A DNA stretch of 41,042 bases from a virus (IMGVR_UViG_3300045988_015542:1-41042), one strand, 5' to 3'. Positions 5,865-39,052 are shown, numbered from the stretch's first letter. Notes: generated from the letters alone by a model not told the origin. A program made the numbers and translations.

Positions 5865-6844
5865 GATGCTTTGTCCTCCTTAATCGAAAATCTTCTGAAT
5901 GTGGTTTGCTTGTAATACTTGCCGAGGTCTGCGTCGGGATGGTCTTTCGCGAATGCCTTTGCGTCAAAGGTGGAGCGGCTCTGCGCCGCCCACGAAACGG
6001 AATAGCGCCCGCACTCGGCGCTTTCCGCGTCGCCCATGTCCTGCATAATGGTCTGCTTGATGGTCTCGATGCGCGTTTCCAGCTCCTTCTTTTCGCCGAT
6101 CAGCTCAAAATACTGCGCGAGCGCAGTCTCTCTTCCAAACAGCTCTACGCAGCCGCCGCCTCCGGAGTAGATCGTTTCCAGCATTTCCGTGGTGCCCTCT
6201 GCGCCGTCCGGAGCGGGCGGCTCTCCGGTCTCAACATGAGCCGTCCAGAAGTCCGCCGCGCAGCGTTTGAGCGCCGCGATCTCGTCCGGCGAGACATAGA
6301 TGCTGCTCTCGCACCACGCGGGGCATTCGTCGTCCGGCACGGTCGTGACCTGATAGATGAAAAAAGCCTTGTTCAGCACCAGCGCCGCAAGATACCAGCG
6401 CTTCCAGCCGGTCACGGCGAGGTAGGTCACGCATTGCGCGTAGTAGCTTTCAGGGAATTCGCCGCCCACATAGTTTTTCATACTCAATGCCGAGGCGGTC
6501 TTGCACTCCAGCCCGGCGCTCTCCTTGAGAATGCGGCGGTCGATGTTCGCATGGAGATGCGGCGCGTCGTCGTTGCGCAGAATGTAATTCACGCGCCGGA
6601 CGGCCTTATCGCTTGCCTCCTCGAAGCGGCACGCGACATACTCCTCCAGATCGCGGCCCTGCCGCATGGCTTCATTGTCGGGCGTCTCGCCGATCAGCCC
6701 TGTTTTCTCCGCCCACACCGCATACGGTGAGCGGTATTTGTTCAGTCCCAGCACAGCGCCCATGTCGCTGCCGCCGAGGCTCTTCCGGCGCTCCGCAAGC
6801 CATTCCTCGCGGCTCATGCCGTCAATCGGTATCTTCGTTACCAT
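5861..6844 (-). CDS. YqaJ-like (lambda Exo-type) viral recombinase exonuclease
   Basis: GGSDMGAVLGLNKYRSPYAVW and LECKTA motifs. ATG at 6844 is preceded by GGAGGAGACCGAAG. Confidence 0.8.
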   Translation of the reverse strand: MVTKIPIDGMSREEWLAERRKSLGGSDMGAVLGLNKYRSPYAVWAEKTGLIGETPDNEAMRQGRDLEEYVACRFEEASDKAVRRVNYILRNDDAPHLHANIDRRILKESAGLECKTASALSMKNYVGGEFPESYYAQCVTYLAVTGWKRWYLAALVLNKAFFIYQVTTVPDDECPAWCESSIYVSPDEIAALKRCAADFWTAHVETGEPPAPDGAEGTTEMLETIYSGGGGCVELFGRETALAQYFELIGEKKELETRIETIKQTIMQDMGDAESAECGRYSVSWAAQSRSTFDAKAFAKDHPDADLGKYYKQTTFRRFSIKEDKAS

Positions 6845-36049: not shown

Positions 36050-37287
36050 GCGATAACTCCCATTCTTCGGCTAATCGGCTCAACTGCATATCGCAGCGCA
36101 TCGATCAAATGATTTTTCTCGTCTGGATAGCCGCTGATCCAGTTTCCGTCTTTGTCTTGATCGTATTCATAGTTCACAAGCTCATCGTAAGCATGCGGCG
36201 TGCGCCTGCGGTCAATAACGATCTTCCTCCGCTGTAGCCACTTCATTCCGTACGTCACGCTGTCAGGGCCTTTTACGGCAGCTTTGGCGGGTAGTCCCAT
36301 CGCGCGGAAGTCCGCAACACTTTTAGGCTCCGCGCTGTCGCAGATGATATAAGCGTCAGTGTAGCCTTTTGCCTTAATCATGCCCGCGCTCTGCTCGTTG
36401 GAAAGTTTGTTTTGATAAATCTCATCTATCAGGTAAATTGTCTCCCGCGCCTTGTCGTAGTGTGCGCGGATAAATGCAAACGGGTCAGGGAACCAGCCAT
36501 AGTCCACGCCCTGATAAATCCGGTCAAAATGGTTGATTTCTTCGTCGGTGATCTCCCGCAGCTCCAGCTTGTCAAACACATTGCCGCCCGTGCCTACCGG
36601 AATGCCGAGATACTCATGCTGATATGCCCGTTCGTCTGTTTCTTTTAGGTGTTCCGCTTCTGCAAGAAACTGTTCTCCCAGCCATTCAGGCGGTGCTTGC
36701 AGATACGTTGACTTGTGGCACAGGCGGTCAGCGCGTTCTTCCAAGCTGTCTTTGTTCGCCCAGTTGTCGCGCGAGATCGGCGGGTTGTAGCTCTCAAAGT
36801 TCCAAAACACCGAGCCGCCGCGCATGGTCGACTGCAAAATGTTTCGGATTTCTGCACGTCCGGCAAACTGGTCTTTCTCTTCAAAGTGCGTCACGGCGAT
36901 ATAGCCAAACGGCACCTTGATAGACTTGATCTTCATGGGGTCGTCAGCGCCCCGGAACATGATCTTTTGTCCGGTAGGCTTATAAATCAGCTCCATCGGG
37001 GATACTTTCGCTTCCCAATACGCCGCCATGCCCAGCTCGCCGATTGCCCAGATATACTGAGCATACACGCTATCGCGGATCGTGTTTGCTACCTTGCGCA
37101 GCACAAGCGCATGCGTTCCCGGGTTGTTTATCAGCAGCAGGGGGACGAGCACGGACACCGTGGACGACTTCAGCGAACCTCTCCCACCGCTGAAATCGTA
37201 GTGTGTGTGCCCATGATGGAACACATCGTGAGCCACGTCGTAAAAAGCCGAGCCGATTTTTTCTGACAAGAGAATATCAGACATCAA
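36046..37287 (-). CDS. terL: Terminase large subunit (PBSX/Terminase_3-like)
   Basis: 413 aa. Walker-A-like GGRGSLKSS. C-terminal nuclease region. Synteny terS-terL-portal. Confidence 0.85.
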   Translation of the reverse strand: MMSDILLSEKIGSAFYDVAHDVFHHGHTHYDFSGGRGSLKSSTVSVLVPLLLINNPGTHALVLRKVANTIRDSVYAQYIWAIGELGMAAYWEAKVSPMELIYKPTGQKIMFRGADDPMKIKSIKVPFGYIAVTHFEEKDQFAGRAEIRNILQSTMRGGSVFWNFESYNPPISRDNWANKDSLEERADRLCHKSTYLQAPPEWLGEQFLAEAEHLKETDERAYQHEYLGIPVGTGGNVFDKLELREITDEEINHFDRIYQGVDYGWFPDPFAFIRAHYDKARETIYLIDEIYQNKLSNEQSAGMIKAKGYTDAYIICDSAEPKSVADFRAMGLPAKAAVKGPDSVTYGMKWLQRRKIVIDRRRTPHAYDELVNYEYDQDKDGNWISGYPDEKNHLIDALRYAVEPISRRMGVIA

Positions 37288-37690
37288 TAACTACCTTGAC
37301 GGAATCCGTGCTTATCTTTGTCTCGTTCACTTCACGCCAACCAAAATTGCAGCCAAGCGAGAATTTCGCACCGTTGGCACCGTCCTTATCGTAGAGCCGA
37401 GATTCGGCGTATTCTTCACATCTGGACTTCGCGCGCGTAACCGTGTCCGCGAACTCCGGCCTTGCCTGATAATCCAGCAGTGCTTGTCTTCCTGTGAATC
37501 CAAGCGCCAATGCAAGCCCTGTGATTGTCGGGGGTTTTGCATTGATAATAATCGGCACCCCGTACTTATCTCGCACAGCGCAGCCGTCATCTCCGATAAA
37601 CGGTTCGCCTTCGCACTTTTTGAAGTAAACGTCAATAGCTTCCTGCATTGCCTTTACGCTTTTCCATTTTCTTGGCGCTCCGCCAGCCAT
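37277..37690 (-). CDS. terS: Terminase small subunit
   Basis: The pattern PPTITGLALALGFTGRQALLDY...AKSRCEEYAE is typical of Firmicute phage TerS. SD AAAGGGAGTGAGCGT. Confidence 0.75.
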   Translation of the reverse strand: MAGGAPRKWKSVKAMQEAIDVYFKKCEGEPFIGDDGCAVRDKYGVPIIINAKPPTITGLALALGFTGRQALLDYQARPEFADTVTRAKSRCEEYAESRLYDKDGANGAKFSLGCNFGWREVNETKISTDSVKVVIDV

Positions 37691-37966
37691 ACGCTCACTC
37701 CCTTTCGTTTTGCTACCAGCCCCCGCCCCTTGGCCTTACATAGCAGACTTTACCCGCCCCGAGGGGCATACACATTTGCCGTCTTCCCGCTTAGATTGTC
37801 ACACGCTACCGGCAACTACGCTCCGAAAAGTCGTAGCCCCTATTCCGTCAGGTCAAACCGGTCTTGACGTATCAAGACAAGCGCAGTTTTCAGCAAGCAT
37901 TGTCATTTCCATGTGAGCCATGACGACAACGGTCTCACATTGTCCGGGCGCTACCCGGCCTCTTGT

Positions 37967-38078
37967 GCAGATGGTGAGGATTTGCACCTCACATAGCCTA
38001 ACAGCGTCGGCCTCCACCGCTTTACTGGGCGGCACCCGAACTGTCGTTTGTAGCGTCTACCTATTCCGCCACATCTGC
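37967..38078 (-). ncRNA. tRNA-like module 2 (112 nt, expanded central region)
   Basis: 7-bp acceptor GCAGATG/CATCTGC. Type-II-like D-arm GCGGAATAGGTAGACGC. T-arm TGAGG-TGCAAAT-CCTCA. About 60 nt lie between the D- and T-arms. There is no CCA. Confidence 0.45.
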
Positions 38079-38137
38079 TTTTTGCCATCAACAGCCAGCT
38101 ACGCACCATTCGGTGTTTCACTACCCTACGGCGTTAC

Positions 38138-38205
38138 GCAGACGACAGGACTTGAACCTGCATCCTCCTCCGGAAGCGGTGCTCTGCCGATTGAGCTACG
38201 TCTGC
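38138..38205 (-). ncRNA. tRNA-like module 1 (68 nt, truncated anticodon arm)
   Basis: Acceptor GCAGACG/CGTCTGC. D-arm GCTC-AATCGGCA-GAGC. T-arm GCAGG-TTCAAGT-CCTGT. Only 18 nt lie where about 22 are needed (CCG-CTTC-CGG mini-hairpin). There is no CCA. Confidence 0.5.
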
Positions 38206-38312
38206 TTATGTCCCCGCTGGGCCACATCGTCGAGAGGTGCGCGGGGTCCTGTCATTTTTGCCCTCAACCGCCCGCCCCGAAGGGCGGGCTATCAAGGGAG
38301 GAGGAAACAGAT

Positions 38313-38360
38313 GAAAAAGCAGAGGCGTGAAGAGCCTCGCCCCATCACGCCTCTATTTTT
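38313..38360. terminator. Bidirectional Rho-independent terminator (ends the early operon on the minus strand)
   Basis: 10-bp stem AGAGGCGTGA/TCACGCCTCT with a 14-nt loop. T-runs on both sides (plus ATTTTT; minus GCTTTTTC). Confidence 0.75.
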
Positions 38361-38379
38361 GCATAGGTTTTTTTTATTT

Positions 38380-38413
38380 TTCCCCTTAAAAGGGGAATTT
38401 TCAAAATTTTTTT
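38380..38413 (+). terminator. Second hairpin plus T-run, plus-strand orientation
   Basis: TTCCCC-TTAAAA-GGGGAA followed by TTTTCAAAATTTTTTT. Overlaps the stop codon of the minus-strand HTH gene. Confidence 0.45.
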
Positions 38414-38640
38414 AGATAATCGTCCACGGTCATTGGATTATCCGTCCGTCCAAGCAGATAATCGACCGACACCCCGAACTTGTCGGCAATGCTTTCCAAT
38501 GCTTCCGTTGTGGGCGTAGCCTCTCCCGCCTCGTACCGCCTCACCGCGTCACGGTGCAGACCGCACAGTTCAGATAGAACATATTGCTTTATTCTCTTTC
38601 TCTCCCGTAAGCGCTTCAAGCGCTCGGGAAACGCGTTCAT
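38401..38640 (-). CDS. XRE-family HTH protein (last gene of the early operon)
   Basis: ATG at 38640 (MNAFPERLKRLRERKRIKQYVLSELCG...EAGEATPTTEALESIADKFGVSVDYLLG). ATGA overlap with the upstream gene. Confidence 0.75.
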   Translation of the reverse strand: MNAFPERLKRLRERKRIKQYVLSELCGLHRDAVRRYEAGEATPTTEALESIADKFGVSVDYLLGRTDNPMTVDDYLKKF

Positions 38641-38840
38641 GCCAGCACCTCCTCCGGTCGGAAACTCTCTTTGATCTCCTTGCCGTCTACCATGATCGCC
38701 ACGGTCACATAGCGTCTCTGCGGATGGATGTACGTCACCGCGCCGGTGCGGAGCGGGTACAGCTTTTCGCCGCGCGCCTTGCCCGGAAACTCCTCCGGCA
38801 CCGTCATAAACTGCGCCCGCACCTTGTCGCCTACTCTCAT
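38637..38840 (-). CDS. Small hypothetical protein (67 aa)
   Basis: ORF in track, translationally coupled on both sides. Confidence 0.55.
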   Translation of the reverse strand: MRVGDKVRAQFMTVPEEFPGKARGEKLYPLRTGAVTYIHPQRRYVTVAIMVDGKEIKESFRPEEVLA

Positions 38841-39052
38841 TCCGCACCTCCAAACGCCTGCTCAAAGGTCAACCCGCTCTCCCTCAGCAGCGCCTTGATG
38901 GTCTCGATGGTACGCGCATTATTTCCTGACAGCCACCACCAAACATTGCTGTACGAAATGCCTACCGCCTCGGCTAACGCCATTCTCGTCTGATTTTTCC
39001 GCAGCAAAGCCGATTGCAGCCGCGGATATACGCAATATGCGAATTCTGTCAT
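38837..39052 (-). CDS. HTH DNA-binding protein (71 aa)
   Basis: ATG at 39052 follows GGAGGAACGGAAAGAA. Contains QTRMALAEAVGISYSNVWWWLSG. Confidence 0.65.
   Translation of the reverse strand: MTEFAYCVYPRLQSALLRKNQTRMALAEAVGISYSNVWWWLSGNNARTIETIKALLRESGLTFEQAFGGAE

Follow-up and report, generated by a model that had tools for sequence, protein, structure and literature searches.

The tRNA elbow and the acceptor/T helix are what RNase P, RNase Z and the CCA-adding enzyme recognise (PMC4810234), and in the engineered tRNA scaffold of Ponchon and Dardel the acceptor, T and D arms are kept while the anticodon arm is replaced by a structured insert closed by a helix, giving RNAs which are processed in E. 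coli and are stable there at sizes of up to about 250 nt (PMC3753655). The acceptor/T 'top half' is also found in the tRNA-like domain of transfer-messenger RNA (tmRNA), with a large insert at the place of the anticodon arm, while the YrlA or bacterial Y RNA module (RF02553) is described (PMC4201824) as a non-coding RNA of bacteria and phages which mimics the tRNA elbow and acceptor. With regard to genomic context, the species 1 and 2 RNAs of phage T4 (rnaC and rnaD) are small stable RNAs of 119-139 nt in the phage tRNA cluster, abutting tRNA genes, and the ROOL and GOLLD RNAs lie in phages and prophages beside tRNA islands, where GOLLD can hold tRNAs in its variable linker (PMC12286853, PMC5737381). 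Here we analyse the 41,042-nt stretch IMGVR_UViG_3300045988_015542 (the window, evidently a phage genome, to the whole of which all coordinates refer), which carries at positions 37967-38078 of the minus strand a 112-nt tRNA-like RNA, hereafter module 2. On balance module 2 is probably a tRNA-like RNA which has a function but does not decode, and which descends from a phage tRNA-Leu, with a variable domain carried on a processed and stable scaffold. Its nearest counterpart by descent is class-II tRNA-Leu, those by design are the laboratory tRNA scaffold, the tRNA-like domain of tmRNA and YrlA, and the T4 species 1 and 2 RNAs come nearest in context.

For the family to which module 2 belongs, 50 diverse members (60-120 nt) were used to build a covariance model (R1), with the window and its four close relatives excluded. 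This model matched 37967-38078 on the minus strand end to end (model positions 1-108 of 108) with 80.1 bits and an E-value of 1.9e-20, while the next best match in the 41-kb window reached 11 bits, and a first tRNA-like module in the same region (module 1, 38137-38205) reached 6.8 bits and is not in the family. Other members score 57-78 bits, and genuine class-II tRNAs 18-35 bits (the tRNA-Leu of T4, of phage EFDG1 and of L141, and the T4 tRNA-Ser; L-numbers denote retrieved loci with relatives), the range for real tRNA-Leu genes being 19-35 bits. Module 2 matches the family far beyond chance and is a bona fide member of it. Conventional searches do not see it: ARAGORN, Rfam at gathering thresholds and Rfam at E <= 10, its tRNA model included, gave nothing on 37967-38078, the only tRNA which ARAGORN and Rfam report in the whole window is 38137-38205, and the family members in 60 loci were never called. 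Neither ARAGORN nor Rfam gave a tmRNA match at module 2, ROOL and GOLLD are absent from the window according to Rfam, and the YrlA model (RF02553) had no match on module 2 and a chance-level one at 38085-38190 (14.5 bits, E 7.4), as were all weak Rfam matches near module 2 (YrlA, JUMPstart and small RNAs).

The family is widespread. An exact-word scan of IMG/VR with the 19-nt T arm found at least 119 viral contigs, and a second exact scan with a 20-nt D-arm word found at least 120, mostly different from the first set; among the matches listed, 187 unique family copies of 60-265 nt were catalogued. A single architecture is near-universal in the scanned contigs, consisting of seven variable nucleotides, UGGCGGAAUAGGUAGACGC, a variable stretch, (C)AU, one strand of a 6-bp stem, UGCAAAU, the complement of that strand and a closing run of seven nucleotides complementary to the opening seven. 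Among 185,579 bacterial species genomes 41 contain the exact T-arm 19-mer (Oscillospiraceae, Lachnospiraceae, Lactobacillaceae, Psychrobacillus, Alicyclobacillus, and metagenome-assembled genomes labelled Saccharibacteria, Bacteroidales, Muribaculaceae and Alphaproteobacteria), with a complete tRNA-like element at no fewer than 27 of the 41 loci. On these counts an attP site or the 3' half of a host tRNA was rejected as a candidate, ordinary host tRNAs not having been directly checked for the T arm. The family signature persists across Bacillota phages and metagenome-assembled genomes of other phyla. Several cultured phages carry the family without annotation, i.e. Leuconostoc phages Ln-9, LN34, phiLNTR2/3, CHA, CHB and P974, Weissella phage WC29P3, the Latilactobacillus TMW phages, Lactiplantibacillus phage Gut-P1, Bacillus phage phi3T and the Enterococcus EFDG1 (Schiekvirus) group. 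The phi3T copy (L271, KY030782 50198-50321) lies just downstream of the yonN (HU-like protein) and yonO RNA polymerase genes, and its 3' end is overlapped by an annotated hypothetical coding sequence, phi3T_57 (50068-50220), which may be a spurious call. In Gemmiger formicilis (L127, 1066-1163) the reverse complement of the family T arm, with a loop AUUUGCA complementary to UGCAAAU, stands on the strand of an HDV-F-prausnitzii self-cleaving ribozyme (79.6 bits), 6 nt upstream of the ribozyme and without a tRNA-like scaffold around it. The family corresponds to no Rfam 15 family and to no description in the searchable literature, including searches with literal sequence strings; as access to the literature was incomplete, an earlier description is possible.

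On the minus strand module 2 reads GCAGAUG-UG-GCGG-AAUAGGUAGA-CGC-(58 nt)-AU-GUGAGG-UGCAAAU-CCUCAC-CAUCUGC, followed by an A, and all sequence features named in a preliminary description made from the sequence alone were found there. The acceptor stem pairs GCAGAUG (38072-38078) perfectly with CAUCUGC (37967-37973) in seven of seven Watson-Crick pairs, and is followed by the discriminator A at 37966 and by no encoded CCA (ACAAG). U8 and G9 lead into a D arm of tRNA-Leu type with G18 and G19 (GCGG-AATAGGTAGA-CGC; 38053-38071 including U8 and G9), which does not differ from that of genuine phage tRNA-Leu(UAA/UAG); the earlier view of a tRNA-shaped module with a type-II (Leu/Ser/Tyr)-like D arm holds, and the module is class-II (Leu)-like. 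At 37974-37994 follow the conserved AU and the T arm, the sequence of which had been given correctly as TGAGG-TGCAAAT-CCTCA, while its stem is really 6 bp (GTGAGG/CCTCAC). The canonical features present are the 7-bp acceptor, the D arm with G18G19 and a T loop with U54, C56 and A58; U8 and A14 are also in place, and the minimum free energy (MFE) fold is cloverleaf-like (z = -2.7 versus dinucleotide shuffles).

The pairing of this scaffold was compared across 103 distinct family scaffolds, in an alignment in which the central part was swapped for a spacer, so that only the alignable ends were compared. Changes on both sides were seen for 14 of the 16 scaffold pairs, and the covariation score was 0.64, versus 0.16 for column shuffles (none of 500 reached 0.64) and 0.06-0.13 for slid partners. 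In the acceptor all seven pairs have two-sided changes, with 4-6 pair types per position at positions 1-6, and the helix ends at 7-8 bp in 66/79 copies; in the D stem U-A replaces C-G at 11-25, and A-U or U-A replaces G-C at 10-26; and five of the six T-stem pairs covary. The G-U pairs in the scaffold helices are strand-specific. The scaffold structure is under selection. The T arm follows a family pattern of AU, a 6-bp stem G-NNN-GG/CC-NNN-C and the loop UGCAAAU, which AU-GUGAGG-UGCAAAU-CCUCAC of the window fits. The G at T-loop position 2, remarked on earlier as standing in place of the usual U55, is a genuine and conserved peculiarity of the family, as it is present in 53/56 copies found via the D arm only, 48 of which have exactly UGCAAAU. 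The discriminator varies across the family (A 94, U 55, C 22, G 16), and the relatives L021, L043 and L056 read CAUCUGC-ACCA at their 3' end. A subclass (L009, L024, L088, L019, L094 and others) has a second insertion within the D loop, AAUAGA(...UGGUAAAGC...)AGUAGACGC, which supplies a new conserved GG-containing motif.

The family derives from tRNA-Leu. Several phage tRNA-Leu(UAA/UAG) genes of 81-84 nt contain the identical D-arm word together with a normal 5-bp T stem and a UUCGAnU loop, and this common word, along with the R1 scores of class-II tRNAs, points to descent from a phage tRNA-Leu. Module 2 and class-II tRNA-Leu are alike in the 7-bp acceptor, in U8, in a D stem of 3 bp with G13 after it, in a D loop AAUAGGUAGA that contains G18G19, in the 20-nt D-arm identity to phage genes and in a helix at the variable-arm position by the T stem. 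The family differs from tRNA-Leu in lacking an anticodon arm, in its 6-bp T stem and in G55 replacing U/Psi55, while U1-A72 is its commonest first pair, its discriminator is variable, CCA is rarely encoded, and it goes undetected by ARAGORN and Rfam.

What stands in place of the anticodon arm is a central domain (37995-38052 in module 2) which is hypervariable across the family, the stretch between D and T arms ranging from an 8-nt linker without any central arm, in the 60-nt L221, to about 200 nt. In the usual geometry the D arm is followed by a linker of about 10 nt, a closing helix, the AU (2 nt) and the T stem, and the closing helix abuts the AU in 89/147 copies. This is the position of the class-II variable arm, not that of the anticodon arm. 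Anticodon stem-loop (ASL)-like hairpins number 8 in the central domains versus 5.7 in shuffled sequence, while an extra canonical T-arm hairpin occurs in a few (6 versus 0.35 shuffled). In one locus (L247, 3832-4032 in reverse-complement coordinates) a complete tRNA-Lys(UUU) called by ARAGORN is nested within the central domain of a 201-nt family element.

The layout of this domain had been outlined correctly in the preliminary description, with 58-60 nt between D and T arms, a TGCCGC/GCGGTG hairpin with loop CCAGTAAA and a GGCC..GGCT hairpin. Four distinct sequences make up the subtype of the window (the window, L043, L242 and L183, the last equal to L226), defined by a common acceptor GCAGAUG and central-domain type, and all 30 proposed pairs hold in all four. 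In hairpin H2 (UGCCG...CGGUG, 38015-38034) five pairs are kept, two of them with one-sided changes, while the loop is not conserved. It is here that the proposed Tyr-like anticodon loop fails: CCAGUAAA in the window becomes CCAGCAAA in L043 and ACCUCUCAAAU in L183, so that the GUA is GCA in the closest relative among the matches listed, and the loops of the closest relatives include an unrelated one of 11 nt. The window loop has 8 nt and an A at the would-be U33, whereas a canonical anticodon arm has a 5-bp stem, a 7-nt loop and a 1-nt joint to the D stem. Hairpin H3 (GGCC...GGCU, 37995-38012), which abuts the conserved AU and the T stem, had been likened to a variable arm, and is backed by compensatory changes in the relatives (pair 68-85 is G-C, U-A or A-U). 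A further helix, H1, joins CUGUU in the H3 loop (38000-38004) with GACAG (38041-38045), its outer pair 34-81 being G-U, A-U or U-A; as H1 crosses H3, the central domain of the window would be pseudoknotted or bistable, with an alternative fold. With four sequences only, these compensatory changes are suggestive. An MFE helix UCGG/CCGA in the central domain was discarded, as it is not kept in L183, and H3 with the crossing H1, both with compensatory changes, was preferred.

The central domain turns over like a cassette. Some pairs of phages (for example L006/L020, L093/L098, L028/L088 and L040/L092) have flanks of 150 nt on both sides that are 98-100% identical, and central domains that differ in length and are at random level of identity (38-43%). 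Exchange also reaches the lineage of the window, as L021 and L056 have the upstream hairpin and acceptor stem of that lineage, yet a different central domain, the type of which is also found under other acceptor stems (L028, L093), with GGCAU/AUGCC versus GCCCU/AGGGC covariation. A search of the window for antisense targets of the central domain gave only chance-level 10-11-mers.

Family elements are placed like tRNAs in arrays. Among 186 unique copies, 54 lie at most 300 nt from a same-strand tRNA, and the smallest gaps from predicted ends to the tRNA are 0, 1, 1, 2, 2, 6, 6, 6, 6, 7, 8, 9, 10 and 10 nt; gaps of 0-10 nt are how tRNAs are packed in arrays. One locus (L060, 2843-3181 in reverse-complement coordinates) has two family elements in tandem, 6 nt apart, and in Clostridiaceae bacterium strain 9 (L141, 3160-7760) an RNA island with a ROOL RNA (345 bits), about 20 tRNAs and a tmRNA contains a family element (6111-6248) packed between two tRNAs, ROOL co-occurring in this one fetched locus only. 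The tRNA array of EFDG1 has an 898-nt unannotated gap. In small siphoviruses, the window included, the element is found at the boundary between regulatory genes and packaging genes or the cos end: in Leuconostoc phages Ln-9 and LN34 it lies upstream of the terminase genes or beside the genome end/cos, and partial blastn matches (D arm or T arm only) in phiJL-1 and VEsP-1 have the same kind of position. Open reading frames within 3 kb of 224 loci were clustered, and no dedicated partner protein family emerged from this survey. The recurrent neighbours with Pfam annotation were only helix-turn-helix (HTH) proteins of the XRE type, terminases, Bro-N and MazG, next to several recurrent clusters without Pfam match; XRE-type HTH proteins and an unannotated, Pfam-negative family of 153-aa proteins recur upstream, and terminases downstream.

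In the window module 2 is housed in a 710-nt intergenic non-coding region on the minus strand (37691-38400), with an XRE-type HTH gene upstream (38401-38865), and the small terminase gene GP3_package (37277-37690) and then the large Terminase_3 downstream. Module 2 lies just upstream of these terminase genes, and no terminator was found between it and the small one. Module 1 (38137-38205, minus strand), which is separated from module 2 by 58-59 nt in agreement with the preliminary description, is a tRNA-Gly with anticodon UCC according to both ARAGORN and Rfam (52 bits), with an anticodon arm 4 nt short and a loop CUUCCGG closed only by C27-G39 and C28-G38 (plus G.A). Its relative in L001 (MT835513) is 82 nt long and encodes CCA, with a 5-bp stem under the loop UUCCCGG and a variable loop of 9 nt, and module 1 may be another non-standard or non-decoding tRNA-like RNA. 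A hairpin CCCCGC...GCGGGG followed by ACAUA (38206-38252, minus strand) stands directly before the first tRNA-like gene, whichever its type, and is conserved in the window, L001, L021, L043 and L056.

Towards the terminase genes there is a second widespread motif without Rfam match (about 37786-37945, minus strand), which combines the helix CYYGC/GCGGG and the internal loop UGAAAACU / GUGACAAUCUAA with another, covarying helix (GCGC/GCGU, GCCC/GGGU, GCAC/GUGA) that carries a variable insert of 10-80 nt. The motif is independent of the tRNA-like family, with co-occurrence in 4/95 loci. Its 19-mer GTGACAATCTAAGCGGGAA occurs in at least 119 IMG/VR contigs, and the 5' partner in 64/73 unique copies; some copies end 15-25 nt before a ribosome binding site and ATG, and a leader or regulatory element would fit. 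Inside the insert of this motif lies an ops/JUMPstart-like GCCGGTAGCGTG (37802-37823, minus strand), for which the Rfam JUMPstart match (16.2 bits, E 1.6) is probably due to chance. Directly upstream of the first late gene is a GC-rich block, GCCCCUCGGGGCGGGUAAAGUCUGCUAUGUAAGGCCAAGGGGCGGGGGCUGGUAGC (37708-37769, minus strand), also found in L001, L021 and L056, which could be a cos/pac site or a leader structure.

The other described systems resemble module 2 in part only. The natural family covers 60-265 nt, where the engineered scaffold works to about 250 nt, and differs from it in being natural, with predicted processing and stability, in its junction linker of about 10 nt and in its altered T arm. 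The tmRNA occurs in the same phage RNA islands (L141) and differs in its degenerate D region, alanine identity, tag reading frame, pseudoknots and detection by ARAGORN and Rfam. YrlA has neither an Rfam match to module 2 nor a Ro60/Rsr neighbour in our survey, and ROOL and GOLLD are much larger, with an unrelated structure. The T4 rnaC ends in a tRNA-type T arm (CCGGGUUCGAAUCCCGG) and then an acceptor-like strand, and the T4 species differ from the family in having a canonical T loop and no tRNA-Leu D arm. Homology to them was considered and rejected, as R1 gave 6.8 bits (E 6.8) for rnaC and, for rnaD, no same-strand match and a chance match on the opposite strand (8.2 bits, E 2.9); the likeness is confined to context and general design.

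Beyond the structure, its ancestry, its turnover and its placement, we infer processing, stability, action in trans and the nature of a target. The family keeps exactly the parts which the maturation enzymes recognise, has the size range of the engineered scaffold and is placed like tRNAs, and on these grounds module 2 is probably excised and would accumulate as a tRNA mimic. The element would be transcribed with its neighbours, in tRNA arrays or, in the window, as part of a terminase/late-operon leader, and host tRNA-maturation enzymes would cut it at the ends of the acceptor stem. The product would accumulate as a stable L-shaped scaffold, displaying a lineage-specific structured domain at the former anticodon-arm site as a natural version of the engineered tRNA scaffold, and may act in trans on a putative conserved host factor, whether by mimicking a tRNA or as a decoy or carrier, with the variable domain presumably under diversifying or cassette-exchange selection. 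Rapid domain exchange, the lack of a dedicated phage partner in the neighbour survey and the wide host range together suggest a conserved host component as the putative target.

Several observations count against this interpretation. We infer excision from shape and placement only, and the acceptor/T stack has 13 bp (7+6), not 12, while the nucleotide at +1 is U in 53% of copies versus G in 51% of neighbouring real tRNAs, so that the choice of site by RNase P could differ from what is assumed. CCA is encoded in 3/187 copies, compared with about 37% of the ARAGORN-called tRNAs at the same loci. The smallest members (60-75 nt) have almost no payload, hence the scaffold itself may be the active part. 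Finally, copies were accepted only if their stems were paired, which inflates the figure of 98.7% paired but does not affect how many pair types occur or the G-U pairs on one strand.

An alternative is that module 2 is a leucine-accepting tRNA mimic, which leucyl-tRNA synthetase (LeuRS) charges, the resulting Leu-RNA then sequestering LeuRS or giving up its leucine in some non-ribosomal reaction. What bacterial LeuRS needs is A73 together with the D/T tertiary core, and removing the entire anticodon stem-loop lowers affinity only about 2.5-fold; its identity set consists of A73, U8-A14, G18-U55 and G19-C56, in which the G18-U55 contact is critical and A73 substitutions cut leucylation 45- to 143-fold (PMC2377443). 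As the enzyme ignores the anticodon arm, leucylation is conceivable for an RNA which has the D arm of phage tRNA-Leu, U8, A14, G18G19, C56, A58 and a discriminator A, and whose close relatives encode ACCA. Against this, the near-invariant G55 replaces the very U55 needed for the contact with G18, only 50% of the family have A as the discriminator, hardly any copy encodes CCA, the T stem has one base pair too many, and no aminoacyl-tRNA-dependent transferase is found among the neighbours, which makes leucine acceptance rather unlikely. A decoding role is scarcely credible, whether for a tRNA with an intron or insertion or for one with an expanded 8-nt, Tyr-like anticodon loop, as the preliminary description had allowed. 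The cloverleaf-like shape, the GUA within CCAGUAAA and the nested tRNA-Lys of L247 agree with decoding, but that loop varies among the closest relatives and ASL-like hairpins are not above the shuffled level, there are no conserved exon-like anticodon halves beside the insert, and the members of 60-75 nt, with a linker of only 8-23 nt, have no central arm at all. In addition, the ARAGORN and Rfam tRNA searches are silent, in keeping with the earlier view that this is not a standard tRNA, and the junctions of about 10 nt from D arm to helix and of 2 nt from helix to T arm differ from those of a tRNA.

The tRNA shape might serve in cis, recruiting RNase P or RNase Z to a polycistronic transcript for its processing or stability, with the excised RNA being without function. 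The recurrence of the element in small siphoviruses just upstream of terminase genes or next to the genome end/cos, downstream of an XRE-type HTH gene and with no terminator before the small terminase gene, agrees with such a signal, but it leaves unexplained the near-invariant G55 T loop, the structured, covarying and exchanged central domains, and the presence of elements in tandem (L060) and among ordinary tRNAs, which are themselves processing sites; we regard it as unlikely. That module 2 is a tRNA-shaped domain of one larger structured RNA spanning the whole 0.6-kb intergenic region, also raised earlier, finds some basis in the whole-region fold (z = -2.6) and in the window and L043, where the module stands between conserved non-coding blocks (the 5' hairpin, the GUGACAAUCUAAG motif and the GC-rich block). 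Family members nevertheless stand alone in tRNA arrays and in many unrelated flanks, the downstream GUGACAAUCUAAG motif co-occurs with the module in 4/95 independently found loci and is without it in 91/95, and in L021 and L056 the outer blocks are retained together with a different central cassette, the middle motif being absent; the independence of the flanking motif makes a domain of a larger RNA very unlikely. That the module has no RNA function, being a tRNA-Leu pseudogene in decay or a site that works at the level of DNA (attP remnant or recombination hotspot), is more improbable still. The conserved scaffold arms of 26 and 28 nt could provide the recombination homology for the swaps, but compensatory and G-U changes on one strand only preserve the helices, and the signature is kept across Bacillota phages and metagenome-assembled genomes of other phyla.

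With regard to the purpose of a non-decoding RNA on a tRNA-Leu scaffold, a pattern in which a near-frozen scaffold is combined with an exchanged domain usually marks host-virus conflict, and tRNA mimicry is a known strategy; module 2 possibly has a role in phage-host conflict. As a tentative extension, which we hold to be possible rather than probable, the family may form, in phages of many bacterial phyla, a modular system in which the tRNA-Leu-derived scaffold exploits host maturation and stability, payloads are swapped by recombination, and the RNAs act as decoys for host factors or inhibit them, for instance defence nucleases that target tRNAs or other proteins which bind tRNA, which would amount to RNA-based counter-defence. 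If so, the laboratory tRNA scaffold would have a natural prototype. The family is abundant in gut viromes and present in tractable phages, i.e. phi3T of B. subtilis, the E. faecalis EFDG1 group, which phage-therapy research makes use of, and dairy phages of Leuconostoc and Lactobacillaceae. If its members are processed and stable, they would explain some of the unannotated gaps in phage tRNA arrays, such as the 898 nt of EFDG1, would provide a natural test bed for the cargo tolerance of the tRNA-processing machinery, and might bring to light RNA effectors of a new class; at the minimum, annotation pipelines should recognise this family.

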